From the NCBI GenBank assembly GCA_034436155.1, contig DAOTVP010000088.1, positions 6,105 to 70,104 on the forward strand: 64,000 bases of DNA, read 5' to 3'. How positions within the stretch are numbered: the first letter of the stretch is position 1; every line of letters starts with the position of its first letter. A program made the position numbers and the translations under genes. Shown one piece after another: positions 8,327-61,435 of this stretch. This DNA comes from Anaerolineae bacterium (GTDB lineage: Bacteria > Chloroflexota > Anaerolineae > Aggregatilineales > Phototrophicaceae). The notes under the pieces were generated by a model. That model did no database searches and was not told the origin of the DNA. It was given only the letters and a program-made list of their open reading frames with translations.

Positions 8327-8361
8327 GGGACGATATACGCGCCGATGGCGCTAATCGTCCC
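8327..8361. repeat. Two-tier REP-like hairpin (ATAC...TA orientation)
   Basis: GGGACGAT-ataC-GCGCC-gat-GGCGC-ta-ATCGTCCC. Confidence 0.85.
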
Positions 8362-8380
8362 GTACAGGTTATAAGCGAGT

Positions 8381-8598
8381 AGGGGCGGATTAGGCGAAGC
8401 CGTATATCCGCCCTATGATACGGAAATTTTTAGGTGTGTAGGGGCGGATTAGGCGAAGCCGTATATCCGCCCTATGATACGGAAATTTTTAAGTGTGTAG
8501 GGGTGGATTAGGCGAAGCCGTATATCCGCCCTATGATACGGAAATTTTTAGGTGTGTAGGGGTGGATTAGGCGAAGCCGTATATCCGCCCTGTGATTA
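8381..8598. repeat. Tandem array, 59-bp period, about 3.7 copies, each unit carrying one two-tier REP-like hairpin
   Basis: Units start at 8381, 8440, 8499 and 8558: aGGGGCGGATtaGGCgaaGCCgtatATCCGCCCtatgatacggaaatttttaggtgtgt. Copies 3 and 4 have a C->T change in the outer stem. Lies between the convergent clc and fhs genes. Confidence 0.92.
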
Positions 8599-8615
8599 GG
8601 CAAAATCGCTACCCA

Positions 8616-21073: not shown

Positions 21074-21274
21074 CGAAGGAGCGCCTTCATCCCATCCGAA
21101 GGCGCTTCTTCGTTTTATAGTCCCGCCATCGGTTCAAAACCGATGGCTAGTCGTCTTTGAAGCCCACTGAAGGGGCTTGGTCTCACCTGTTTTTGAGGAT
21201 AAATCTATTTTATAGCGGGTTTGAGCGCCTTTAGTGCGCTTGATGCGACTAGCGAGATGCTCAAAGCATCTCGC
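21074..21274. repeat. Cluster of five unrelated stem-loops in one intergenic region
   Basis: Hairpins at 21074-21112, 21125-21147 (GCCATCGGTT-caa-AACCGATGGC), 21160-21178, 21224-21240 and 21252-21274 (GCGAGATGC-tcaaa-GCATCTCGC). Confidence 0.7.
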
Positions 21275-22743: not shown

Positions 22744-22789
22744 GGATATACAACAGGGATAATATATGCGCTTCTGTGCCAAACAAAAA

Positions 22790-22822
22790 GGGACGATATA
22801 CGCGCTTCGCGCTAATCGTCCC
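22790..22822. repeat. Two-tier REP-like hairpin (ATAC...TA orientation)
   Basis: GGGACGAT-ataC-GCGC-ttc-GCGC-ta-ATCGTCCC. Confidence 0.85.
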
Positions 22823-22912
22823 CTACCGATGATGATAATTGTTAGGGTGCGTACTGGCAGATTAACACCGTCAGGTGTGTATATCCGCCATTCTGCATCC
22901 CAAAGGCGTGCT

Positions 22913-25900
22913 TTACGCCATCGCCCGTTTGCGCCACACGACAAATGTTAATCCGAGTGTGGCTAATCCGAGCAATCCGATAATCAACGCATCGCGCCAC
23001 GCGGGTGCTTCACCCGTTGCGGGCAATGCCACGATGTTGTTATCCACCACCAATAAGGCGGTGGTTGTATCCACAACCTGACCGTTCACAATCAACCGCC
23101 CTTGAACGAGTGCCGTGGCTTGGGTATAAGTCGGCGCAACGGTCGCATCGAGGTCAAGCGTAACCTGTTCGCCGTTGGCAATCTGCCCAAAGTTCAGGCG
23201 CACGCCATTATTCGAGGCGGGTTGTGTTTGTTGCGATTGGACGGGTGCGCCCACTCGTTTGGCGAAATCGGTCATCGCTTTGGCAATTTCTTGGAAGAAA
23301 CTGGGGATGCCATGCGATGAGCGGGCGTTGCTGGCGCTGATGCCACGAGGCAACACCAATTCGAGCGTACCTGTCATGCCATTGCCACTAAAGTTCTCGA
23401 AGATGAGCGAAATGGCTTTGCTCCCACCGCGCCCAACGAAGTTGTTATTATTCTCGAAGCGGATGATCAACATTGGGCGGTTTTGCGCGGGTGGTGGATT
23501 GTTGCCCGGTGGGTCTACTGGTGGCACAACAACAGTGGTGCTGGCGGTCGCCGTGACCGTGTTGGATGGTGCGGATGCGTTGAAGCTGGTATCCACCGCC
23601 ACGATGTAATAATCATACGTTGTGCCAGAGACGACTGTTGTATCGATATACGATGTGGCGAGCGGGTTGGTGATAGTTGCAATCAACACACCATCACGAT
23701 ACACCTCAAACGCGAACAAATCGCCATCGGTATTCGGATGCGCCACCCAACCGAGTTCAATTTGGGTATCGCTCACACCGATCACCGATAAGCCTGTGGG
23801 CGCACTCGGCGCGGTGGTATCAGTTGGCGCGGTGACGGTCAGTTGACCTGCATCGGCGGGGTTATATGTGGCGAAGGTCAAATCACGGAACGGACCCGCG
23901 TTTGTGCCATAATACCATGTTGCGCCACCATCGCCACTATACCGATATAGATAATCGTAATTGCCAACAGCAGTCGGGATGAAATTGCCTCGATATTCGT
24001 CATTGGTCGGACCAAAACCGCCTGTATTGCCGTTAAAGGTGGTGCTGAACCATTGCCATGCAGGGTCATTCGGCGCGACACCATCGGGTCCATAACCCAC
24101 TTCTGCCAGTAAACCGGGCGTGGGATCGACACCATTTTGATTGCCTGTAACGCCATTAATCCAGATTTGCCCGTAAATATCGGGGACAGGCGTGGTGGCG
24201 CTCAAAGTATGGGTGATGGTGGGGGGCCACTGCAAATTGAACCATGTATTCGGACCATCGTTCAGGTCGTATAACACATTGGTGACGGTGAAGCTAAAAC
24301 TGCTCACAATTTGTTGGGTATCACCAGCTACATCATGATTGCCCGATAGCGTGACGGTATACGTGTCGTATGGCAGTGGCAATTCACCCACGTCTATTGT
24401 GAAGGTATGGGTATCGGTGGCGCTGTTATAGGTCAAGACACCTGCTACAGGGTTAGACGCGCTATCCAACACCGTGAACACACCTATTGGGCTATTATTC
24501 GGCAAGCCCGCGGGCATATCCTGATTCCATGTGAAGGTGATGGTGGGGATGTTGCCATCGCTGAAGGTGGCACCATCGGCAGGTATGCTCGAAATGACAT
24601 ACGGGTCGCGCCAATTGGCAACCGTATCGGCAATGCTCGGTGTACCAGGGACCGTATAGGTGCGGTTTGCCCCGCCTAAGATTTCGGTGTTGCCATCGGC
24701 TTCTTTTTCAACCGTTTCCCATGAGCCGCGGGTGTATTTATATTGGAACGATGTGCCAACGGGTACGCTGTTGAAGGTTAATTCCCATACATTTCCGCCG
24801 ACATTCGTCATGGGCATGTGCGTCCAATCTGTACCGCCGACAGAGGCAAATGTGCCGATGAGGTGAACTGTCCCTGGCGTATGGCTGGGGACGGTCACGC
24901 TGAAGGTGACATTCACACCTGCAATCGCGCTCACGCTGAATGTGGATGCGAATGGCACTTGTTGATTATTGCCATTCCAATCGGTATTACCCGATACCGC
25001 CACACTGTACGCGCCATCTGGCAATACTGCATCGGGTGTAAAGGTATGGGTATTCGTGCCTGTGCCGATTGTGCCTGTCACAGGTGCGGGGACGCTATCC
25101 GATACGGTGAATATGCCATTGATATCGGGCATATTTTTATTCCATGTGATGGTCACAACCGTGTTCGGCGGGTTGTTGATTGACGCATCGGCAGGTGTAA
25201 TGCTGATGACATACGGGTCGCGCCAATTGCCAACCGTATTATTCACGGTTTGCGTTTGACCGCCACCATCGGCAACTGTCACGCTACGATTCGCCACACC
25301 ATCATACCCATTGGCTTGCATTTCTTCATTCGACCAAGCGTTACGGGTGAATTTATATTCAAAATAACCCGTATCAGGCAGGATAAGCGTGGTACGCCAC
25401 AACGTTGGGCTGATTTGTGTCATCAGGATACCCGCAGGATCCCAATTTGGATAACCCGCGCTCCCAAAACTACCGACCAAATACACATCGGTTGGGGTAT
25501 GGCTTGGGACGGTAGCATTAAATGTAACCGCCACCATGCCCGCAGGCAAGCCGACATCGAAGCTATAATTATATGGTACTTGTTGAACATCACCCACAAT
25601 ATCCAAACAGCCTGCAACCGCAACGGTATGCGCTCCTACCGCTAAATTCGCCGATGGGGTGAAGGTGCTGGTGTTGGATGGCGCATCAAATGTCCATGTG
25701 CCTGTCACCACCCCGCTCGGACCCGTGACGGTCACGCATGAATTCAGGTTGGCAGGCATATCCTGATTCCACACAATTTCGAGTGCGCTACCGGGTGGCA
25801 CGCCTGTCGCGCCATTGACGGGATTGGTGCTGACGACCAACGGGTCACGCCAATTGGCAACCGTATTATTCACCGTTTGTGTTCCTGTCACGCCGTAATT

Positions 25901-28900
25901 GGCGGTGTGTGTACGGTTGCTGATTTCGGTGTTGCCATCCGCGGCTTTATCACCTCGTAACCAATCCCCACGCGAATATTTATACTCGATTGTCGTGCCG
26001 TCGAGGATGTTGAAGGTGATCTCCCACGTTGTCGGACCCGTTTGCGTCATGATGTAGGCAGGGTCGCTCGGATTCCAACCGTTAAAACTGCCGACAATAT
26101 GCACGGGTCCGGGTGATGGATTCGGCACAGTCGCCACGAATGTCACTGCGACTTGGCGTAACACGGCATCGGCGTTGACGGTGTTGGATGGAGCAGATTC
26201 GTTCAGGCTGGTATCAATCGCCGTGATGTAATAATTGTAATTTTCGCCACTAGTGACGGTGCTATCAATATATTGCACCGCACCTGCGCCGACAACCGTA
26301 CCGATGAGCGTGAATCCGGGCGAGGCGGTATTTTCACGGTAGATCCTAAAGCCGTACAAATCGCCATCGGTATTCGGATGGGCATCCCAACCAAGTGTCA
26401 CCGATGTGCTGGTGGTCGCCAAAACCGTGAGGTTAGTCGGCGCGGCGGGCGCTGTCGTATCGGCGGGTGGATTGACAGTCAATACGCCGACATTCCCCAA
26501 TCCATAATCACCCCCTGGTGGGTTAAGTTGCGAATAACGCCATGTTAAGCCACCATCGGTAGACCAACGATAGGTATACCAGAATGTGCCTGTCGCGGTG
26601 GGCAATAATGTCCCCATAAATTCATCATTGTTGCCGGCATTGACGTTAAAAGTCGTTGGGAACCATACCCATGACGGGTCGCTTGGGGCGATGTTTTCTG
26701 GACCATAACCGACTTGGGCGAGTAAACCCGGTGTTGGGTCTACGGCATTCTGACCACCAGTCACACCTGCAATATACACCTGTCCATAAATGTTGCTTGT
26801 TGGGGTCACGGCGCTCAAGGTATGGGTGAGGGTGGGGGGCCATTGTAAAGTATGCCAATCAATGGCGAGGGCAGGGGTGGCGCTGACCTCGTTGTTGCAA
26901 TACAAATCGCTGGTGACGAGTGTCGTGCCATTTTTGCCGACCACGCGATAATAATAGGTGGTGGCGTTGGCGACAGTTGTATCGCTATAGCTGGTGGTGG
27001 GGTGGTTGGCGAGGATTAAATCGTAACCGCCACCACTCAGGCGACTGCGATAAATATCATACACGGTGGCATTGGTCGCCGCCGACCACGACAAATTGAC
27101 ACTTCCCGCGCCACTCACAGCAACAAGGTCCGTGATACAGGTTGGGCGGGCAATCGCCGTATTCAGGCGCAAAATCACACCACCGCGTGCGGGTAAGCTA
27201 GCGATGACAATTTCGCCACTGCCATTCACCGTGTAACCTGTGCTGGTGAGCAAATCGGTCAGGCTACTGCCTACGGGGATGTATCCGCTTACGTTGATTG
27301 TCGCCGATTGGGCGCTATTCGTGCCGTTGACCACCACAATCACGGTGTTGCTATCATCACCCAATTTACGCCCATAGGCATAAATATCGCCCGATGTATA
27401 TAACGGGTCGAAGCTACCTGTCCGCAGGGCGGGGTTGCTGTTGCGGATGTCGATCAGTTGGGCGTAGTAATTGTACAACGCATCACGCGAGGCTGTGCTT
27501 TGCAGGTGGGTATAGAATGGCGTGCCTGTTTCATCCAACCACGGATACGGTTGGCGATTATACGGGTCATCTTGCCATTGTGAACCGTCAAAGCCGATGG
27601 GTCCGACCAAGCCGATTTCATCGCCATAATAAATCGTTGGCGCACCGGGCAATGTCATTTGCATGAGCGCCGCACCGCGCAAGCGACTGATGGCATCGCT
27701 CCAATCGTAGGTGGGGTTGTTATAGGTAGCGGGATTGTTCGAGCCTGTGTTGTGATCGAGCAAGAATAACACGCGGTTGGTGTCGTGACTACCGAACAGG
27801 TTCATCATAGCATAGAACGCGGGCGGGGCATATCGTTCTTCGAGGTTGAGCAGGCGTTCATTCACCCCGTTGGCATCCAACGGATTCAACACACCTGCTG
27901 AACTACCCGCGTTGAAGTCGTTATCATTAAACGTAGTATCACGCCAGAAGCTGAGGACGGCGGCGCTGAATTGATAATTCATGGTCGCGTCCCATTCTCC
28001 GCCAATTGTCCACGAGGTGGGGTTGCCCCATTCTTCGCCAACGATATACACATCGGGGTCTATGGCGCGGACGGCGGCGCGGAAATCTTCCCAATAATCA
28101 TCAGTGGGGTCGTTAATCGTCCCATGGTCAATTTCTGGGGCGACATCTAAGCGCCAACCCATCGCACCTTGGGCAATCCAGTATGGACCGACAGAATTCA
28201 CGCCGTTGTTGATGAAATAATCACGCACGGGACCGTAATCGTGTTGGAAAACGGGTAAGCTATCGAAAATGCCGAACCATTTTGGATAATCGCGGTTATC
28301 CGAACATGGGGCGGGGGGAGTGCCTGTATAATTAAAGAAGGTGTACCATGGGGTGAATGAGCCAGAATTGGTCTCGCACGCCCCGCTATTATCATCCGTA
28401 CCGAGTACGGTCGATGTCGGGAATACACCGGGCGTACTGCCACCCGTCCAACGGCTGTAACGGTCAAAATACACACTATCCGATGACGAGTGATTGAACA
28501 CACCATCCAGAATGATGTTGATACCACGCGCATTCGCCGCAGCGACTAACGCTTGGAAATCGGCGAGCGTGCCAAAGTTATCATCCACCACAAAAAAGTC
28601 GGTGGTGTCGTATTTATGATTGGATGGTGATTCAAAAATCGGGTTCAAATAAATCGCTGTCACGCCCAAGCTATCGATATACGGTAATTGGTCGATAATC
28701 CCTTGCAGGTCGCCACCGTAAAAATTCTGGCTCCAAATTCCGGGGCAAGTCGTACCCGGATTGAAGCTACTACGCGGGTCACAGATGGGGGTGTTCCAAT
28801 TGGTGGCATTTGAACGATACACCGTATCGAAATTGCCATAAAAAAATTCGCCCGCCGATGGATTATTAGATGAATCACCATCGCGGAAGCGATCGGGGAA

Positions 28901-29831: not shown

Positions 29832-30341
29832 ATGAGAACACAATCCCCCCCGATAGACCCGCCCAGTGATGACAAGCGGTGGCGCATCGTGAATGCGACC
29901 ATGCGCCGACACGGGTATATGCCCCGCGCCCTCATCGAAACCTTAAACAGCGTTCAACAAGCCTTCGGCTATTTGGATGAGGATGCGTTGCGTTATGTAT
30001 CGGCGGCGTTGCACGTCCCGCTCAGCAAAACGTATGGGGTGGCGACATTTTATCACTTTTTCACCCTCAAGCCCGGCGGCGCACATACCTGTGTGGTGTG
30101 TTTGGGGACGGCATGTTACATCAAAGGCAGTGCCGAGATTTTAAAGGCACTCAGCCAGCATTTTGATGTCAAACCCGGTCAGACCACCGCCGATAAATCG
30201 CTCTCGCTCATGACGGCGCGGTGCATCGGCTCGTGTGGATTAGCCCCCGCTGGTGTCATAGATAATGTGGTCGTCCCACGCCTGACACAAGAAGGGGCAA
30301 TCGCCAAAGTAGAGGAGATAATCAAAGATGGACATGGATGA
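29832..30341 (+). CDS. hoxE: Bidirectional [NiFe]-hydrogenase diaphorase subunit HoxE (NuoE-like 2Fe-2S)
   Basis: Start at ATG 29832 after GAGGTG. NuoE-like Cys pattern C..C(LGTAC)...C(IGSC). Operon context. Confidence 0.82.
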
Positions 30342-33184: not shown

Positions 33185-33213
33185 GGGCGGATATACGCTT
33201 CGCTAATCCGCCC
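33185..33213. repeat. Two-tier REP-like hairpin (ATAC...TA), first half of an inverted doublet inside the hox operon
   Basis: GGGCGGAT-ataC-GC-ttc-GC-ta-ATCCGCCC. Confidence 0.85.
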
Positions 33214-33243
33214 CTACACGCTTAAAAATTTTAGGAGCTGTAC

Positions 33244-33276
33244 GGGACGATTAGCGCCAAGCGCGTATATCGTCCC
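33244..33276. repeat. Two-tier REP-like hairpin (TA...GTAT), second half of the inverted doublet
   Basis: GGGACGAT-ta-GCGCc-aa-GCGC-gtat-ATCGTCCC. The spacer ctacacgcttaaaaattttaggagctgtac resembles the spacer in the 8.4-kb array. Confidence 0.85.
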
Positions 33277-33317
33277 TAAATATGCCATGATTTGTACCTG
33301 TTATTTGGAGATTTTTT

Positions 33318-35211: not shown

Positions 35212-38064
35212 ATGACCATCCGACGCGCTCATATCACCATCAGGGGCATCGTGCAAGGAGTGGGATTTCGCCCGTTCATCCATCGGCTGGCGCATCAAGC
35301 CCAGTTGACGGGGTGGGTGAATAACACCGCGCAAGGGGTGGTCATCGAAATAGAAGGGGATGAGTATCTCATCCAACATGTTTTAGGGCGCATCCGAACC
35401 GAATTGCCACCTCATGCCCATATCGCCGATATGCAGGTGATGTACATCCCCCCTATTGGCGATAGCGATTTCATCATCGAAAAAAGTGCCGATGACGGCG
35501 CAAAAACGGCGTACATCCTCCCCGATTTGGCGATGTGTCCCGATTGCCTGCGCGAAATGACCGACCCGCATAATCGGCGTTATCGCTATCCGTTCATCAA
35601 TTGTACGCATTGCGGACCGCGCTATAGCATCATGACCGATTTGCCCTACGACCGCCCGAATACGACCATGCGCGAGTTTGTCATGTGTGCCGATTGCCAG
35701 CGTGAATATGACGACCCCGCCGATAGGCGTTTTCATGCCCAACCGATAGCCTGCCCCGTGTGCGGACCGCATATCGCGTTATGGGATGCCGATGGACAAA
35801 TTTTAGCCACCCATCACGAGGCGATCATCGCCTGTGCCGATGCGTTACGGGCGGGGAAGATAATCGCCCTCAAGGGCTTGGGCGGGTTTCATCTGCTCGC
35901 CGATGCGACCAATCCAGACGCGATCCACACATTGCGCCAACGCAAACATCGCCCGCATAAACCATTTGCCGTCATGTTTTTGCATATGGATGAGATTCGC
36001 CGTTGGTGTGTGGTGGATGATGTGGCACAGGATTTGCTCACATCCCCCGAAGCGCCGATTGTGTTGTTGGAGAAGCGGATTTATCCCCACGCTCTAACCC
36101 CTGCAGATGAGGAGCATCCCCACGCTCTAACCCCTGCAGATGAGGAGCATCCCCACCCCCTAACCCCCTCCCCACTTCGTGGAGAGGGGGGATGGCATGA
36201 TAATCCACCACATACCCCCCCTTTCTCCATGCAATGGGGAAAGGGGGCAGGGGGGATAGGGGACGATTTACTCGCACCAGACAACCCCACGCTCGGCGTG
36301 ATGCTTCCTTATACACCGCTCCATCACCTGTTGCTATCCGAATGTGGCTTCCCGCTCATCGCCACCAGTGGCAACCGCGCCGATGAGCCGATTTGTACCG
36401 ATGAATACGAGGCGCTCACCCGTCTGCGCGGGATTGCCGATTTGTTTCTGGTGCATAACCGACCCATCCAGCGTCCGATAGATGATTCGGTAGTGCGCGT
36501 CATGGCGGGGCGGGTGATGATGATACGCCGTGCGCGGGGTTATGCGCCACTGCCGATAAAACAACCCCACCCCCTAACCCCCTCCCCAAAAATTGGAGAG
36601 GGGGAACAGCATGATAATTCGTCAAATACTCCCCCTTTCTACATGCAATGGGGAAAGGGGGCAGGGGGGATAGGGGACACGACTTTAGCCGTTGGCGCAC
36701 ACCTCAAAAATGCGGTAGCGATACGGCGCGGGGATGATATTTTCATCAGCCAACATATCGGCGACCTCTCTACCGCAGGCGCACATCATCATTTTGAACA
36801 GACCATCGCCGATTTATCCGCCATGCTCGATGTGCATCCGCAAAAAATTGTGTGCGATGCCCATCCCGATTACGCCTCGACCACCTACGCCCATCAAAGC
36901 GGGTTGCCTATCCGCAAAATTCAGCATCATTACGCCCATGCGTTGGCGTGTTTGGCAGAAAACGGCGTGGAATTGCCCGCGTTGGCGGTCGTCTGGGATG
37001 GCACAGGTTACGGTGATGATGGCACGATTTGGGGCGGTGAATTTTTGCGATTGACCCGTAACAGTTATGAACGGGTGGCGCATGTGCGACCGTTTCCGTT
37101 GATTGGCGGAGATAGCGCCGTGATAGAACCGCGCAAAACGGCGCTTGGTTGGTTGTATAGCTTGCTCGGAGATGCGATTTTTGACGATGAACAATACGCG
37201 CCCGTCCGACAATTCACACCCGACCAACGGCGTGTGTTGCGCCAGATGGTGCAGAAAAAGGTGAACTGTCCGATGACGAGTAGCATGGGGCGCTTGTTCG
37301 ATGCGGTTGCTTCGCTCATGGATGTGTGTCATGTGATGACGCATGAAGCGCAGGCGGCGGTGATGCTCGAATATTTGGCTTCGCAACCCCACCCCCTAGC
37401 GCCGATAAATGGAGAGCGACCCCACCCCCTAGCGCCTATGAATGGAGAGCGACCCCACCCCCTAGCCCCCTCCCCACTTCGTGGAGAGGGGGAACAAAGA
37501 AATTTTTATCCTATGTGGGATGACGAGGCGCTGAAGGGGCTAAAATCTGATATACAGATGTCAATATGTTCAGGTGATAAGGTATCATCACAATCTCAAT
37601 ATGACAATCCAATCGGTGAACACCCCAGCCCCTTGAGTGGGCTTCCAAATTCGATAGCGAGGGGTTTTGAACCCCTCGCGGGGCATCCAACGGCGCAAAC
37701 AAGTCCCCTCTCCATGCAGAGTGATGAGGCGCAAACAAGTCCCCTCTCCATGCAATGGGGAGGGGATTTAGGGGTGGGGTTGCTCACATCGCTCATGGCG
37801 GATATAAACGCGGGCATCCCCAAAACGGTGATAAGCCATAAATTTCATGTTACACTTATAGAGATAATCATCCACACCGCGCAACGCATCGGCGAGAGGC
37901 GCGTTTTGCTCACAGGCGGGTGTTTTTTGAATAAACCCTTGCTCGAAGGCGCGATTATTCGCCTACGCGAGGCGGGATTCATCCCCTATTGGCATTCCCA
38001 AGTCCCGACAGGCGATGGCGGGATATGCTTCGGGCAGGCGGTGGCGTGGATGTTATCATCATGA
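35212..38064 (+). CDS. hypF: [NiFe]-hydrogenase maturation carbamoyltransferase HypF, expanded by three in-frame repeat insertions
   Basis: Acylphosphatase domain (ITIRGIVQGVGFRPF). Two Zn fingers (CPDC...CTHCGPRYS; CADC...CPVCGP). YrdC-like ALKGLGGFHLLADA. Kae1-like C-terminus. Start ATG 35212. About 950 aa, whereas my recollection of typical HypF is roughly 750-800 aa. Confidence 0.9.
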   Translation: MTIRRAHITIRGIVQGVGFRPFIHRLAHQAQLTGWVNNTAQGVVIEIEGDEYLIQHVLGRIRTELPPHAHIADMQVMYIPPIGDSDFIIEKSADDGAKTAYILPDLAMCPDCLREMTDPHNRRYRYPFINCTHCGPRYSIMTDLPYDRPNTTMREFVMCADCQREYDDPADRRFHAQPIACPVCGPHIALWDADGQILATHHEAIIACADALRAGKIIALKGLGGFHLLADATNPDAIHTLRQRKHRPHKPFAVMFLHMDEIRRWCVVDDVAQDLLTSPEAPIVLLEKRIYPHALTPADEEHPHALTPADEEHPHPLTPSPLRGEGGWHDNPPHTPPFSMQWGKGAGGIGDDLLAPDNPTLGVMLPYTPLHHLLLSECGFPLIATSGNRADEPICTDEYEALTRLRGIADLFLVHNRPIQRPIDDSVVRVMAGRVMMIRRARGYAPLPIKQPHPLTPSPKIGEGEQHDNSSNTPPFYMQWGKGAGGIGDTTLAVGAHLKNAVAIRRGDDIFISQHIGDLSTAGAHHHFEQTIADLSAMLDVHPQKIVCDAHPDYASTTYAHQSGLPIRKIQHHYAHALACLAENGVELPALAVVWDGTGYGDDGTIWGGEFLRLTRNSYERVAHVRPFPLIGGDSAVIEPRKTALGWLYSLLGDAIFDDEQYAPVRQFTPDQRRVLRQMVQKKVNCPMTSSMGRLFDAVASLMDVCHVMTHEAQAAVMLEYLASQPHPLAPINGERPHPLAPMNGERPHPLAPSPLRGEGEQRNFYPMWDDEALKGLKSDIQMSICSGDKVSSQSQYDNPIGEHPSPLSGLPNSIARGFEPLAGHPTAQTSPLSMQSDEAQTSPLSMQWGGDLGVGLLTSLMADINAGIPKTVISHKFHVTLIEIIIHTAQRIGERRVLLTGGCFLNKPLLEGAIIRLREAGFIPYWHSQVPTGDGGICFGQAVAWMLSS
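36083..36263 (+). mobile_element. G/C-rich hairpin MITE-like element, copy A, in frame inside hypF; left end triplicated (2 x 33 bp)
   Basis: 33-bp tandem atccccacgctctaacccctgcagatgaggagc at 36083-36115 and 36116-36148. Then a 113-nt core at 36151-36263: CCCCACCCCCTAA..CCCCTCCCCActtcgTGGAGAGGGG..CCCCCTTTCTCCATgcaATGGGGAAAGGGGG..GGGGGGATAGGGGA. Confidence 0.8.
36565..36677 (+). mobile_element. G/C-rich hairpin MITE-like element, copy B, in frame inside hypF
   Basis: 113 nt, colinear with the copy A core. Ends and both hairpin stems are identical; differences are confined to the loops and the central spacer. Confidence 0.8.
37387..37779 (+). mobile_element. Composite 393-nt element (131 codons), copy C, in frame inside hypF
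   Basis: Left end CCCCACCCCCTAG (present three times through a 33-bp tandem duplication, 37387-37452). Right end TAGGGGTGGGG at 37769-37779, an inverted repeat of the left end. Internal hairpins CCCCTCCCCActtcgTGGAGAGGGGG and CCCCTCTCCATgcaATGGGGAGGGG. A 36-bp tandem duplication at 37692-37763. Confidence 0.8.
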
Positions 38065-38093
38065 TATTGGCGGTATATAAAAAGGGATATGAG

Positions 38094-38984
38094 ATGAAAT
38101 ATATAGTTCGACTGATGATTTTATGGCTGGTATTTTTGAGTTTATATAGCACAATCGGGGCGCAATCGGATGAGGCAGAACCAGATACCCATCCCTTATT
38201 CGATATGCTCAGGCGTGTGCCGATTGAATTTGCGAATACCGAAATAAGCTATACCGATTTTCGCGCCGTAGAAGATGCTTTGCCTTATGTGGAACGACCC
38301 GCACTGGGTGAAGTTTTTTATGGTGGGTGGCCGGGATACACACAGCGTTGGTATACCTTTCAGACGAACATCCGTGAGGTAGCTCCAATGGCATTAAGAG
38401 GAGGTGGCGAGATTATATCACAAACGATCGGGTTTGAAATACGCGATATAAATCGCCTATTCACCTTTGGACACCCGCCTAACAATGGCACGATTTGGTC
38501 GGGTGATTTTGATGAAGAGGCTATCCGTACCGCGCATACCGCACGCGGGTATAGCGCCGTCACCATCAATGGTGCCGAAGCATGGTGTTATGAGGGTGAT
38601 TGTTCTATCGGCACTCGTGCCAACCTACAAGAAATCGAGAGAACCAATTTATTTGACTCACGGCTTGGGCGTAAAATTCCATTTGTGATGTGGGATGATA
38701 CCCTCATCAGCACAGAGCATCAATCCATTTTAGAGGATGTTGCCAACCTAACAGAAAACACGTTGTATGATGATGCCGATATTCGCGCACTCGCCCAAGT
38801 CGCCACCGCCCCAGACGGGTTATTGGTCAATTGGTTGTTATGGCGTATGGATATTGCTACTGGCTCTGATATGTCATTGACTACATTAGAACGCGAAGGT
38901 TTAAGCGCCGATACAACGCAATTCAGCACCTATGAATATCAGAATTTGCCACCCTATGATGCGGTTGCTATTGCCGACCGCTAA
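38094..38984 (+). CDS. Secreted hypothetical protein
   Basis: Start ATG 38094 (MKYIVRLMILWLVFLSLYSTIGAQ signal peptide). No recognisable motif. Confidence 0.5.
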   Translation: MKYIVRLMILWLVFLSLYSTIGAQSDEAEPDTHPLFDMLRRVPIEFANTEISYTDFRAVEDALPYVERPALGEVFYGGWPGYTQRWYTFQTNIREVAPMALRGGGEIISQTIGFEIRDINRLFTFGHPPNNGTIWSGDFDEEAIRTAHTARGYSAVTINGAEAWCYEGDCSIGTRANLQEIERTNLFDSRLGRKIPFVMWDDTLISTEHQSILEDVANLTENTLYDDADIRALAQVATAPDGLLVNWLLWRMDIATGSDMSLTTLEREGLSADTTQFSTYEYQNLPPYDAVAIADR

Positions 38985-38996
38985 GAAGGAGACCGT

Positions 38997-39356
38997 ATGG
39001 TGGCATTATTGATGGTGACATATGGGGATGAAGCCACTGCTCAAATTGGCGCGGCGGAACTCTCGGCGCGAGTTTCTAACTTCGCCGATAGAATGCGTAA
39101 TAGGGATAGTGATTCCCTGCAACCGATTTTAGATTTTATCCCTGGCGCGATAGTGAGTCATTCGGTATACGCCAGCGACACGGGGCGGTATGTGGCGATT
39201 GTCCGTATCGAATACGATACACCAACGCTCGAACAGGCGCTCGCATCTCGATCCTCTGAGGATTATTATGCCCCAAATGCCGCCGTCTTTCGGATATTGA
39301 CAGATGCTTTTATAAATCGGGCATTTTATCCCTTATGGACGGTGTGGAATGAATAA
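38997..39356 (+). CDS. Hypothetical protein, in the same frame as the preceding ORF
   Basis: 119 aa. GAAGGAGA RBS 6 nt upstream. Separated from 38094..38984 by a single TAA plus four sense codons. Confidence 0.45.
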   Translation: MVALLMVTYGDEATAQIGAAELSARVSNFADRMRNRDSDSLQPILDFIPGAIVSHSVYASDTGRYVAIVRIEYDTPTLEQALASRSSEDYYAPNAAVFRILTDAFINRAFYPLWTVWNE

Positions 39357-55760: not shown

Positions 55761-55872
55761 TCCCCCATCCCCAGCCCTTCCCCCATCGAATAGGGGAAGG
55801 GGGTAAAAACCACCTTTGAGGTAGGATTTTAGCCTCCTCTCCATGCAATGGGGAGGAGGTTGGGGGTGGGGA
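55761..55872. mobile_element. G/C-rich hairpin MITE-like element, intergenic copy E
   Basis: TCCCCCATCCCCAGCC ... CCCTTCCCCcatcgaataGGGGAAGGG ... CCTCCTCTCCATgcaATGGGGAGGAGG ... GGTTGGGGGTGGGGA, with inverted termini. Confidence 0.75.
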
Positions 55873-55897
55873 TAATCGATTCAAGAAAGGATACACG

Positions 55898-57136
55898 ATG
55901 AAAAAACTAACTTTACTTTGCATACTTATCTTCACACTAGGATTAACCGCCGTGAGCGCACAAGACGACACCAAAATCCCACAACTGCCTAGCGAAGGCG
56001 CATTTTTCACGGGTGAATATCGCAATATCTTATCGGAATGGGGGTTATCGGATGAAGAAATCCAAACCCGCATTGATGAAACATTCCAGCAATTGTTTTA
56101 TGGCGATGACGACAACGAGCGCGTGTATTACGAACTCGGTGATGACATGGCGTATATCGTCGACATCAACAACAACGATATTCGCACCGAAGGCATTTCG
56201 TATGGCATGATGATCACCGTCCAGATGGATAAAAAAGCCGAATTTGACCGCCTCTGGAAGTGGGCATATACCCATATGTATCACAAAGAGGGTCCGTGGG
56301 CGGGGTATTTCTGTTGGCATACCCGCCTAGACGGGACATGTATCGACAACAACCCCGCATCCGATGGTGAAATTTGGTATGCCACCGCGCTATTTTTTGC
56401 CTCTGCCCGTTGGGGTGATGGTGAAGGCATTTTTAATTATAAAGAATATGCCCAAACCATCCTCAACACCATGATTCATCAAAAAACTGCCCTCGCCACA
56501 CCGACATTCGACCCCGAAACCAAGTTAGTGGTGTTTGTGGCGCAAATTGGAGAGGTGAGCCAATTCACCGATCCATCGTATCAAGCGCCTCATTTTTATG
56601 AAATTTGGGCGCGGTTAGCCACGCAAGATAACGAATTTTGGCAAGAAGCCATCCAAGCCGCCCGTGAACATTGGCGTAATGCCGCCCATCCCGTCACAGG
56701 GTTGATGGCGAATTATGCTGAATTCACAGGTGAACCGCGGGATTGGGGTGGTAGTGATTATGGCGGTGTGTATTATGCCGATGCGTGGCGCATTGGCATG
56801 ATGGTGGCGCTGGATTACATCTGGTTTGCCCCAGACCAATGGCATGTCGAACAGAGCAACCGCTATCTGCGCTTCTTCCACGATTTAGGCATCGGGCGCT
56901 ATAACAGTCGCTTCTTGATTGATGGCACGCCACAGGGCTTTCAACATCGTTCTACGGGGCATATCGCCACCAACGCCGTTGCCACCCTCGCGTCTACCGA
57001 GCCGTTTGTGTGGGATTTCCTCGAAGAATTTTGGAATACGCCCATTCCGACAGGACAATATCGGTATTATGATGGATTGTTGTATATGATGGCGTTGTTG
57101 CAGACCAGTGGCAATTTTAGAATTTATATGCCATAA
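55898..57136 (+). CDS. GH8 glycoside hydrolase (xylanase / exo-oligoxylanase-like) with signal peptide
   Basis: EGISYGMMI catalytic-acid region and GH8 signature-like ASDGEIWYATALFFASARW. Signal peptide MKKLTLLCILIFTLGLTAVSAQ. Confidence 0.78.
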   Translation: MKKLTLLCILIFTLGLTAVSAQDDTKIPQLPSEGAFFTGEYRNILSEWGLSDEEIQTRIDETFQQLFYGDDDNERVYYELGDDMAYIVDINNNDIRTEGISYGMMITVQMDKKAEFDRLWKWAYTHMYHKEGPWAGYFCWHTRLDGTCIDNNPASDGEIWYATALFFASARWGDGEGIFNYKEYAQTILNTMIHQKTALATPTFDPETKLVVFVAQIGEVSQFTDPSYQAPHFYEIWARLATQDNEFWQEAIQAAREHWRNAAHPVTGLMANYAEFTGEPRDWGGSDYGGVYYADAWRIGMMVALDYIWFAPDQWHVEQSNRYLRFFHDLGIGRYNSRFLIDGTPQGFQHRSTGHIATNAVATLASTEPFVWDFLEEFWNTPIPTGQYRYYDGLLYMMALLQTSGNFRIYMP

Positions 57137-59938: not shown

Positions 59939-61435
59939 TTATCCCTCGAATAGCGCACGCAACGCACCTTTATCCACCTTGCCTGTGCTATTCAGGGGTA
60001 AAGTGGGCAGTATGCGCCAACGGCGCGGGATTTTGTAGCCCGCCAAGTGTTGCCGTAAAGCCGCTTGCAGGTGGGGTATATCCACCTCGCCCACCAGCGC
60101 ACACGCCACGATCTGCCCCCATTCGGGGTCGGGGATGCCCACCACCGCTACATCCGCCACGCCCGAAAATTGGCGCAACACCGCCTCAATTTCGGCGGGA
60201 TATACATTTTCGCCACCCGTCACGATGAGGTCGCTCCGCCGTTGGATGACCCACAGGTCGCCGTCACGATCCACATAACCCATATCGCCCGTGAATAATT
60301 CGCCATCCCGTATCGTTTTGGCAGTGGATGCGTCATCGTGATAATACCCCGCCATAACGGTCTTTCCGCGCACGGCAATTTCGCCGATCGTCCCCGTTGG
60401 GCAAGTGTTCTCGTGTTCGTCTACGATGCGAATGGTGATGCCGTTCATCGGTTTGCCCACACTGGCGGGTTTGCGATAGGTCATATCGGGCGTGGCGGTA
60501 CACACTTGCGAACTGGCTTCGGTCAATCCGTAGGTGGTGGCGACAGGCAAGCGAAAATCGGCACACCGCGCCATCAGCCGCTCATCCGCCGCGGCACCAC
60601 CGAGCAAAATCAGCCGTAGCGATGGAGTCCACGCCCTCACATCCCGCTCCAACAACCGATACAACATGGTCGGCACGAGCGAAATCAGCGTAATCGGGCG
60701 GGTGCATAGGGCATGATACACGCTATCGACATCAAAGCGCGGGAATAACGAGACGGTCGCGCCTAGCATAAAACAGCGCACGAAAATCGATAACCCGCCG
60801 ATATGATACAACGGCAACACGCATAGCCAATGATCATCAGCCGTCATGTTCAGACGTTCATGCGAGGCGACGGCGTTGGCGATGAGGTTATCGTGCGTGA
60901 GCATCGCGCCTTTCGGTTTGCCCGATGTGCCAGATGTGAACATGATGCACCCCACCCCTAAATCCTGCACGGAGAGGGGGCTGGTTTGCGTCCCCACCCC
61001 TAAATCCCCTCCCCATTGCATGGAGAGGGGACTTTTTTGCTCCCCCTTTCTCCATGCAATGGGGAAAGGGGGCTGGGGGGATAGGGGAAACCCATACACC
61101 GCCACATCCACATCTGGCACGGGCATGTCATCGGCATGTATCAGACAGGTCGCGCCCGCAAATTCCACCTGATAGCGGATTTCATCCCCCGTCAGGCGCG
61201 TATTGAGTGGCAACGGAATCGCGCCCAATTCCCACAAGGCGATAATCATCCGCACATACACGGGGTGATTATGCGCTAAAATTGCCACTACATCCCCGTT
61301 TTGGATACCCCACTCACGCAATTGCGCCCTGTCATGCTGGATTGCCTCGCGTAATTGGGCGTAGGTATACGTCCCGTGTGGGGTGATGAGGGCGGGTTTA
61401 TTTTGCGTGGCGCGGGTTAGATATGGGTAGAGCAT
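59939..61435 (-). CDS. AMP-dependent synthetase/ligase (MenE-like acyl-CoA ligase) carrying an in-frame repeat insertion
   Basis: FTSGTSGKPKGA, LPLYHIGGL, TYGLTE, GDMGYVDRDGDLWVIQRRSDLIVTGGENVYP, NSTGKVDK. About 50 extra residues just before the P-loop. Confidence 0.85.
   Translation of the reverse strand: MLYPYLTRATQNKPALITPHGTYTYAQLREAIQHDRAQLREWGIQNGDVVAILAHNHPVYVRMIIALWELGAIPLPLNTRLTGDEIRYQVEFAGATCLIHADDMPVPDVDVAVYGFPLSPQPPFPIAWRKGEQKSPLSMQWGGDLGVGTQTSPLSVQDLGVGCIMFTSGTSGKPKGAMLTHDNLIANAVASHERLNMTADDHWLCVLPLYHIGGLSIFVRCFMLGATVSLFPRFDVDSVYHALCTRPITLISLVPTMLYRLLERDVRAWTPSLRLILLGGAAADERLMARCADFRLPVATTYGLTEASSQVCTATPDMTYRKPASVGKPMNGITIRIVDEHENTCPTGTIGEIAVRGKTVMAGYYHDDASTAKTIRDGELFTGDMGYVDRDGDLWVIQRRSDLIVTGGENVYPAEIEAVLRQFSGVADVAVVGIPDPEWGQIVACALVGEVDIPHLQAALRQHLAGYKIPRRWRILPTLPLNSTGKVDKGALRALFEG
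60950..61088 (+). mobile_element. G/C-rich hairpin MITE-like element, copy D, in frame inside the ligase gene (element orientation antisense to the gene)
   Basis: CCCCACCCCTAAATCC (x2, at 60950 and 60992), CCCCTCCCCATtgcATGGAGAGGGG, CCCCCTTTCTCCATgcaATGGGGAAAGGGGG, GGGGGGATAGGGGA. Confidence 0.8.

Follow-up and report, generated by a model that had tools for sequence, protein, structure and literature searches.

In-frame G/C-rich repeats of the triplex-motif type at three sites of a hypF gene from a Chloroflexota-like host

How does a protein-coding gene come to hold several blocks of G/C-rich, hairpin-forming repeat DNA and still read from end to end? The question is raised by hypF, the gene for the carbamoyltransferase HypF, which lies within a hox/hyp operon on a 64-kb stretch of DNA from an Anaerolineae bacterium (GCA_034436155.1, contig DAOTVP010000088.1; hereafter the window, meaning the whole stretch). 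A reading made from the sequence alone had noticed two such blocks in hypF and proposed that they belong to a mobile hairpin family resembling MITEs (miniature transposable elements with inverted repeats). The explanation that we consider probable is that a dispersed, non-coding, G/C-rich triplex-motif repeat was acquired at three tolerant sites of hypF, was kept in frame, and has had its arms homogenised. The nearest named relatives of this HypF are annotated as Anaerolineae, and its open reading frame (ORF) matches all five HypF Pfam domains (Acylphosphatase, zf-HYPF, Sua5_yciO_yrdC, HypF_C and HypF_C_2), with Sua5_yciO_yrdC and HypF_C_2 each matched in two stretches. The gene and its repeat-derived parts are as follows.

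35212-38064, plus strand: hypF, carbamoyltransferase HypF, 950 aa, the ORF that hosts three repeat inserts
36083-36150, plus strand: tandem truncated 5' units (CCCCACGCTCTAACCCCTGCAGATGAGGAGCAT) that precede element A in about 2 copies, encoding PHALTPADEEH twice
36151-36263, plus strand: element A, a putative inverted dimer of triplex-motif units, an insertion relative to the homologue P0003 and to distant HypF proteins
36151-36191: 5' unit of A, with a C-rich third arm at 36151-36160, TAA, a pyrimidine arm at 36164-36174, a loop at 36175-36179 and a purine arm at 36180-36191
36192-36214: spacer of A
36215-36263: 3' unit of A, with a pyrimidine arm at 36215-36229, a loop at 36230-36233, a purine arm at 36234-36247, CA, and a G-rich third arm at 36250-36263
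36565-36677, plus strand: element B, with the architecture and codon phase of A, in the YrdC-to-Kae1-like linker and absent from the HypF proteins P0008, P0018 and P0050
37387-37782, plus strand: third, composite insert of mixed truncated, 5'-type and 3'-type units
37387-37452: two 33-nt truncated units of the third insert
37453-37492: complete 5'-type unit of the third insert
37624-37682: unrelated hairpin repeat, within about 200 nt of other sequence in the third insert
37693-37728 and following: 36-nt tandem truncated units of the third insert
37741-37779: 3'-type unit CCCCTCTCCATGCAATGGGGAGGGGATTTAGGGGTGGGG of the third insert, in reverse sense

Elements A and B are each exactly 113 nt long and 87-88% identical, and they share the same ends, CCCCACCCCCTAACCCCCTCCCCA and ATGCAATGGGGAAAGGGGGCAGGGGGGATAGGGGA, for which dinucleotide shuffles of the window give an expectation of 0 matches to either end. 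The sequence-only reading had described them in just this way, and its coordinates hold: stems and ends are alike in the two copies, and the variation falls in one 5-nt loop (CTTCG versus AAAAT) and in the 23- or 26-nt spacer. It had further given each copy two stem-loops. Both small hairpins do exist, CCCCTCCCCA/TGGAGAGGGG and CCCCCTTTCT(C/A)CA/TGGGGAAAGGGGG, each with one non-Watson-Crick position, but at minimum energy the sense strand folds into a single long hairpin that pairs the outer arms too, so that the double hairpin is one among several possible folds of the element. Single-strand folding, computed with ViennaRNA and hence with Watson-Crick and G.U pairs only, gives z = -3.6 to -5.1 against shuffles, and for elements A, B and a further element, D, the one long hairpin is the minimum-energy fold at z -4.9 to -5.5. 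An Rfam scan returned no family at threshold, merely sub-threshold microRNA-hairpin noise. Nine of the ten canonical G-quadruplex (G4) motifs of the window (G3+ N1-7, four runs, both strands) lie inside these repeat elements; the tenth, outside the repeats, is at 29845-29864.

The folding energies describe the pairing of two arms, and each half of an element has three. Read on its G-rich strand, a half has first a pyrimidine arm and a loop, followed by a purine arm, a short loop and a further G-rich arm: the 5' half is CCCCTCTCCA-CGAAG-TGGGGAGGGGG-TTA-GGGGGTGGGG on the bottom strand, and the 3' half is CCCCCTTTCTCCA-TGCA-ATGGGGAAAGGGGG-CA-GGGGGGATAGGGG on the top strand. The last G-rich arm has no nearby complement; it mirrors the purine arm, A standing opposite T or A, which is the rule for a purine-motif intrastrand triplex. 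By this layout A and B are inverted dimers of two different units, with a spacer of 23-26 nt between them. The truncated 33-nt units that precede A (period 33, 2.6 copies, 96% match by Tandem Repeats Finder) keep the third arm and the loop and lack the pyrimidine stem arm.

Are these segments genuinely foreign to HypF? In an alignment with 11 homologues, the distant HypF proteins P0008, P0018 and P0050 have nothing at any of the three sites, and the closer P0003 lacks the site-1 segment, so that by sequence comparison all three segments are insertions relative to distant HypF orthologues, as had been proposed for the first two. The best match in the Protein Data Bank (PDB), 3VTH, aligns in four pieces whose breaks fall exactly at the three inserts. 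Site 1 corresponds to 3VTH residues 289/297, a loop within the YrdC-like domain; site 2 to residues 393/401, the linker between the YrdC-like and Kae1-like domains; and site 3 to residues 630/653, a variable part of the Kae1-like C-terminal subdomain. The sequence-only reading had assigned both of its elements to inter-domain linkers, which is right for site 2 and wrong for site 1. In an AlphaFold model built from 51 sequences, aa 292-347, 443-486 and 732-852 have no secondary structure and a predicted local distance difference test (pLDDT) score <50, and outside the inserts most 10-residue blocks of the YrdC-like and Kae1-like domains score 85-97. The inserts are therefore predicted to be disordered surface loops on an intact HypF core.

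If the segments are insertions, when were they acquired? Inserts at the same junctions occur in six related hypF genes (76-91% amino-acid identity to the core of the window protein), which were drawn from NCBI, JGI and Logan assemblies. Complete dimers occupy all three sites in P0002 and sites 1 and 2 in P0004, and in P0005, P0006 and P0007 hairpins of the GTAG-headed repetitive extragenic palindromic (REP) type take the place of parts of the dimers or interrupt them. This distribution points to inserts that are old and inherited within the orthologue clade rather than to recent hops. Third-codon identity between the core of the window hypF and its orthologues is only 0.56-0.79, with synonymous sites about 55-65% identical, and the site-2 5-nt loop varies: it reads AAAAT, CTTTG, TTACA, CAGAG or CAGGG in different hypF genes. 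The 34 nt of arms in the site-2 5' unit, by contrast, match the window at 34/34 positions in five orthologues and at 33/34 in P0007. Copies also resemble their neighbours in the same genome more than their counterparts elsewhere: complete dimers are 0.88-0.92 identical within a genome versus 0.84-0.86 when one site is compared across genomes, sites 1 and 3 have like loops within a genome and unlike ones between genomes, and a 6-nt spacer indel is common to the three copies of P0002 and missing from the window and P0004 site-1 copies. Since copies are more similar within than across genomes, gene conversion or a DNA-level constraint is suggested as the source of arm uniformity.

The second of these options opens onto a different explanation of the whole locus, namely that the elements are kept for a role as nucleic acid, whether as a hairpin, G-quadruplex or triplex pause that slows ribosome or polymerase at domain boundaries, or as sites of programmed recombination or instability. 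The invariance of the arms across orthologues, where loops, spacers and synonymous sites diverge, speaks for such a role, as do the T.G or C.A non-Watson-Crick stem position kept in all subfamilies, the placement of sites 2 and 3 near domain or subdomain borders, the concentration of canonical G4 motifs in the elements, and the stable triplex that an E. coli relative of the unit forms in vitro (PMC4666352). We nevertheless judge it unlikely. Units are also found between genes, in both orientations, and within unrelated genes; orthologues swap element halves for GTAG-type REPs, or lack the element as P0003 does, with the gene intact; the stems, being invariant, offer no compensatory covariation; the E. 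coli units had no promoter, terminator or in vivo polymerase-blocking activity in published tests (as summarised in PMC4666352); and the within-genome similarity of copies points to gene conversion.

Are the inserts part of the protein? The hypF frame runs through A and B in the same codon phase, within the ORF that matches the five HypF domains, and yields the peptides HPHPLTPSPLRGEGGWHDNPPHTPPFSMQWGKGAGGIGD and QPHPLTPSPKIGEGEQHDNSSNTPPFYMQWGKGAGGIGD, as had been read from the sequence. In the three hypF genes compared, all complete dimers are 2 mod 3 in length and all copies have the same phase. In every hypF examined, moreover, the ORF stays intact through all indels, all nested insertions and all tandem units, of 33 or 36 nt, from which we infer that the inserts are translated rather than excised. 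A near-identical strain, represented by the public metagenome-assembled genome (MAG) GCA_037442285.1 (contig JBBIQP010000009.1), illustrates the point: its hypF differs from that of the window by 2 amino-acid substitutions and by two extra 36-nt units in insert 3 (four rather than two), which add 72 nt in frame. The sequence-only reading had seen in this an element whose sequence stays open in the frame used. The hypF frame is indeed open, but no special design is apparent: the G/C-rich arms have no stop codons, the conserved CTAA loop closes one frame per strand (2/6), and the other frames are open unless an A/T-richer spacer supplies a stop. Stop-free arms together with selection on hypF would keep the element in frame.

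It is extremely improbable, in our estimation, that the segments are instead removed at expression, in the manner of an intron, an intein or a translational bypass, or are artefacts of assembly. Strong hairpins could in principle promote bypass, and such repeats do break the assembly of one MAG; on the other hand, the Rfam scan was negative, all variants, tandem units and strain differences are stop-free multiples of 3, which would be needless if the segments were excised, and independent assemblies from three sources (NCBI, JGI and Logan) have the same inserts. Readings as intein, intron or assembly artefact were accordingly rejected, as neither intein nor ribozyme features are present and the inserts recur in independent assemblies.

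What, then, is the repeat outside hypF? The window holds five loci of the family, four of them in genes, where 0 are expected by chance. Two lie away from hypF.

60949-61088, listed on the plus strand: truncated unit and complete dimer in the gene for a MenE-like 2-succinylbenzoate-CoA ligase (59939-61435, minus strand)
55762-55875, plus strand: related intergenic dimer (CCCCCATCCCCAGCCCTTCCCCC...CCTCCTCTCCATGCAATGGGGAGGAGGTTGGGGGTGGGG), upstream of a gene that begins near 55898

The copy in the ligase gene has the opposite orientation and is in frame, in another frame than that used in hypF, being read as PLSPQPPFPIAWRKGEQKSPLSMQWGGDLGVGTQTSPLSVQDLGVG (the peptide starts PLSPQPPFPIAWRKGEQKSPLSMQWGGDLGVG...). 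It is spanned by a single Pfam AMP-binding match and, by comparison with PDB 5BUQ, sits in an unaligned segment directly before the TSGTSGKPKG motif. This copy bears on the proposal that the inserts are adaptive in the protein, as P/G-rich flexible linkers that tune HypF domain movement or partner binding. In-frame retention in seven lineages, at loops and linkers, is what that proposal would lead one to expect, but the ligase gene reads the same DNA in another frame and strand; at the same HypF site the peptide content differs completely among orthologues, from REP-derived peptides to absence in P0003; conservation is at the level of nucleotides, third codon positions included, and not of amino acids; and the inserts have no predicted structure. 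We regard an adaptive role in the protein as very improbable.

Beyond the window, a scan of species-representative genomes with CCCCACCCC-N5-CCCCTCCCCA found at least 118 stretches; among the matches listed, Chloroflexota MAGs are enriched, and Acidobacteriota, Planctomycetota, Spirochaetota, Bacteroidota, Cyanobacteria and others are also present. A coding location was accepted where at least 100 codons lay on each side and a Pfam domain was matched, a stop-to-stop ORF test being uninformative in G/C-rich genomes. In-frame copies inside single Pfam domains were found in YceG (L044), CofE (L045), a beta-lactamase-family protein (L057), heparinase (L059), YjeF_N (L099) and a Major Facilitator Superfamily (MFS) transporter (L008). 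A metagenome scan with the 3' unit gave 52 stretches, mostly cores of longer composite repeats of other organisms; none of the 25 evaluable copies lay within a long ORF, all of them being intergenic. The family is thus not confined to hypF, as had been anticipated, and the distant HypF orthologues aligned have no homologous residues at the insertion sites. Two abundant repeat families of the MAG 'Anaerolineae bacterium F11_13' (DAOTTO01, L004-L112) have the G/C-rich dimer as their core and possess genuine terminal inverted repeats of 15-19 nt that differ between the families, AGGACTTTCGCTCAC.../...GTAAGCGAAAGTCCT and TAACCTGAGTTTCGGATAG.../...CTATCCAAAACTGAGGTTA; these repeats are where many of that MAG's contigs end. 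Protein-level searches added less: a word-index search with a 40-aa insert peptide gave no match, and a profile search of 1.84 billion representatives with the insert peptide gave 13 matches, several of them unrelated low-complexity or immunoglobulin-like repeat proteins, and is unfit as a census of host genes.

HypF itself recurs as a host. Among its 120 best homologues, 12 that lie outside the close clade (about 45-53% identity) carry, at these three loops, other triplex-motif-like peptides such as SPSPKGGGEPPSPRRRGAGGEV and PLSDTERGDSPFPIREGGRGVRS (P0009, P0012, P0013, P0020, P0022, P0023, P0030, P0036, P0049, P0089, P0091 and P0105). By its peptide sequences, this pattern indicates recurrent and probably independent colonisation of the three HypF loops in distant lineages.

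To what known repeats is the unit related? Its closest counterpart in architecture is the BoxC/PIT/triplex-motif (TM) class (Bachellier; Hoyne & Maher 2000, 2002; Holder et al. 2015, PMC4666352), in which the E. coli type, TM_ECO, follows the pattern CCCTCNCCC N3-6 GGGNGAGGG N3 GGGNGAGGG, with loops of type TTA or CCG and often one stem mismatch, and is represented by 3610 copies in 262 proteobacterial genomes (PMC4666352). Both have a C-rich arm and, across a loop of 3-6 nt, its G-rich complement, then a short TTA-type loop and a second G-rich arm that may be able to form G*G and A/T*A triads against the purine arm; both show a frequent single stem mismatch, common inverted pairs, many dispersed copies, local instability and no known transposase. 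The E. coli unit forms a stable triplex in vitro and is tied to local instability, and no link to a mobile element had been found in 2015 (PMC4666352). The three-block layout (loops of 1-6 nt, at most one mismatch) fits both halves of A and B. They differ in that the Chloroflexota arms are G4-A-G4 or G4-AAA-G5 and those of TM_ECO G3-N-G-A-G3; that the hosts are Chloroflexota here and Proteobacteria or Cyanobacteria there; and that in K-12 the TM_ECO units, which include five inverted pairs, are always intergenic (PMC4666352), whereas 4/5 window loci lie in Pfam-supported ORFs, in frame.

Two observations tell against this kinship. In the hypF dimers the third arms are outer, and in E. coli pairs they face each other. 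The strict TM_ECO pattern has 0 matches in the window; elsewhere it matches the cyanobacterial-type locus L122 alone among the loci scanned, and one E. coli K-12 site beside ycjD. In favour of the layout, the purine arm and third arm are compatible with the mirror rule in 223/233 units across all fetched DNA (shuffled mean 109, maximum 127), a figure inflated by two unit classes that were chosen by our own search patterns; in classes not so chosen, the rule holds in 13/13 units (AGA/AG(T/A)) and 8/11 units (AA). Taken together, the layout identifies the unit as a module of the BoxC/PIT/triplex-motif type, a relative in architecture and not a copy of TM_ECO.

Other systems share behaviour rather than build. 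The analogy with Rickettsia palindromic elements (RPEs; Ogata et al. 2000, 2002), already drawn by the sequence-only reading, is apt, as these too are short palindromes found in frame in unrelated housekeeping genes, tolerated in surface loops, with intergenic copies as well. The units here have no relation to RPE-1 to RPE-10 in consensus or composition: RPEs are confined to Rickettsia, and the present units are G/C-rich, potentially triplex- and G4-capable, found in several phyla and, here, in a Chloroflexota-like host. REP dimers and REPINs (PMC3733652, PMC3116915) are likewise inverted doublets of short imperfect palindromes that form one long hairpin, which the two-unit inverted layout with spacer resembles, and REP dimers occur inside known genes in several species, encoding 20-30 aa, sometimes two per gene (PMC3733652). 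The present elements differ from REPINs by the third mirror arm and by ends (CCCCAC... and ...GGGGA) without a GTAG/CGTC head; no link to REP-associated tyrosine transposases (RAYTs) is known, the window ORFs not having been searched for Y1 transposases; and true GTAG-type REPs coexist in this genome, nested in elements of the orthologues. Bacterial MITEs are alike in being small, with many copies and hairpin potential, and in-frame fusions are a documented outcome for them (PMC10969869). In the window genome, in contrast, terminal inverted repeats past the imperfect third arms are lacking, as are a consistent target duplication and a parent insertion sequence, and the MITE-like mobility first suggested, which would call for such repeats beyond the unit arms, target duplication or a linked transposase, is not demonstrated by the copies in this genome. 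Lastly, recurrent G-quadruplex sequences of Methanomicrobiaceae have nearly the same arms, GGGGGGTGGGGG-CA-GGGGAGGGGG-CTCG-CCCCCTCCCC, with an adjacent C-rich tract, and were shown to be in hairpin/triplex/G4 equilibrium in vitro; their arm order is the mirror image, their hosts are archaea, and the sections of that report cited here do not mention copies in coding sequence (PMC8044849).

How might the present state have arisen? An ancestor of this Anaerolineae-like lineage would have gained elements at three places in hypF that tolerate extra residues, and selection on hypF would have let only in-frame, stop-free versions persist, each translated as a P/G-rich disordered surface loop of about 40 residues. 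Gene conversion among the many genomic copies, possibly with a DNA-level constraint as well, would keep the arms uniform, and replication slippage at the element edges would yield the 33- and 36-nt units, with survivors in multiples of 3 nt. New copies may arise, at a guess, by a trans-acting nuclease or a recombination route rather than by a classical transposase. Several observations count against this account or narrow it. No transposase and no empty-versus-filled polymorphism was found, and mobility is inferred from dispersal alone. No consistent target-site duplication was found in the hypF orthologues, which have just short site- or lineage-specific direct repeats (GATTTA around site 1 in the window only, TAAT around site 2 in P0002 and P0005 only), and the outer arms of the element are imperfectly complementary (CCCCACCCCC versus GGGGGGATAGGGG). 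The perfect conservation of the arms could instead reflect selection for a nucleic-acid function; the argument from frame conservation to translation is biased, in that protein databases hold intact ORFs only; and the copy count for the source genome covers the 64-kb window rather than a genome-wide census.

A candidate enzyme emerged from the insert-peptide search, which also gave proteins of the DUF559 (Vsr-like nuclease) family with TM-derived tails. In a BREX PglX gene the arrangement is [dimer][dimer]-DUF559-[dimer], in frame, and in a Chloroflexota MAG a DUF559 gene occupies the place of the dimer spacer, with three 5'-type units on one side and one 3'-type unit on the other. Among the 120 best homologues of the TM-flanked DUF559 domain, which come from Cyanobacteria, Chloroflexota, Gemmatimonadota and others, tails are almost always TM-derived, with 45 motif matches in 3119 tail residues versus 11 in 88893 control residues. 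The arrangements concerned are these.

Loci L122, L123 and L181: DUF559 between triplex-motif units
Proteins P0122, P0123, P0130 and P0133-P0252: members of the DUF559 group concerned
Locus L031: DUF559-like match about 50 nt from a unit
E. coli K-12, 1351205-1351760 (L184, 11206-11761): ycjD (DUF559) and TM_ECO

The last of these has a degenerate unit at the 3' end of ycjD and a perfect TM_ECO 168 nt downstream, a proximity for which we estimate about 0.004 expected by chance, given 18 TM loci in 4.6 Mb. The gene is present in 3378/5426 complete E. coli genomes at a variable locus; one ycjD-less strain has an efflux island there, so it offers no clean empty site. By tblastn, DUF559 is absent from the window and was found at one among 121 loci. 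These sequence comparisons show a real association between one DUF559 clade and the TM unit, the genes of the clade being regularly embedded among such units in several phyla. A bolder proposal, possible in our view but doubtful, is that TM repeats and this DUF559 clade (Vsr-like, PD-(D/E)XK) form a single unrecognised, cross-phylum selfish system in which DUF559 is causal. The arrangement [TM units]-DUF559-[TM units] would then be the enzyme-carrying form, and bare dimers as in hypF would be non-autonomous or 'solo'; the nuclease might act on the conserved T.G-containing hairpin, and copying would proceed by recombination or gene conversion, which would explain both the arm identity of orthologous copies and the likeness of copies within a genome.

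Some further features surround these subjects. Two ORFs without a Pfam match (37989-38984 and 38997-39356) lie between hypF and hypC, and in three related loci (L124, L125, L127) hypC directly follows hypF; by this comparison the pair resembles an insertion of genes into the hyp operon that is specific to this lineage. The unrelated double-hairpin repeat nested in insert 3 (CCCAGCCCCTTGAGTGGGCT...CGAGGGGTTTTGAACCCCTCG) has an inverted copy 16 kb away at 21122-21180. Intergenic DNA of the window also holds other small repeat families (repeat loci 1918-1961, 8335-8372, 22784-22833, 33238-33281, 8369-8603 and 33203-33231). One consists of GTA(A/C/G)GGGACGAT...ATCGTCCC hairpins resembling GTAG-headed REPs, a REP type that is also nested in the G/C-rich elements of related hypF genes (L126-L128), and another is a 59-nt tandem array with GTAGGGGCGGATTAG. 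Internal repeats at 23554-26396 (families D5, D9 and D13, about 0.6 and 2.6 kb apart) fall within the coordinates of a 2181-aa ORF on the opposite strand in the MAG annotation, with Pfam matches to alpha-amylase, fn3 and Big_5.

In-frame repeat insertion is already known behaviour; as far as our literature searches show, what is new is the family, its host and the fact that HypF has been colonised recurrently and at three sites. Beyond Rickettsia RPEs and GTAG/CGTC REPs, the finding brings repeats of the BoxC/triplex-motif type, which in E. coli K-12 are not known to have a function or a means of spread, into the class of selfish palindromes carried within protein genes, and it has a practical side for annotation, where such repeats make P/G-rich pseudo-domains and inflate protein lengths in MAGs. 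HypF loops that appear to have been colonised repeatedly in different phyla amount to a natural map of insertion-tolerant sites. Arms that stay invariant when synonymous sites are near saturation imply concerted evolution or a DNA-level constraint, both of which are testable. The DUF559 association, if it holds, would be the first concrete candidate for the machinery behind these repeats, and the selfish-system proposal, if true, would give a mechanism for the spread of BoxC.

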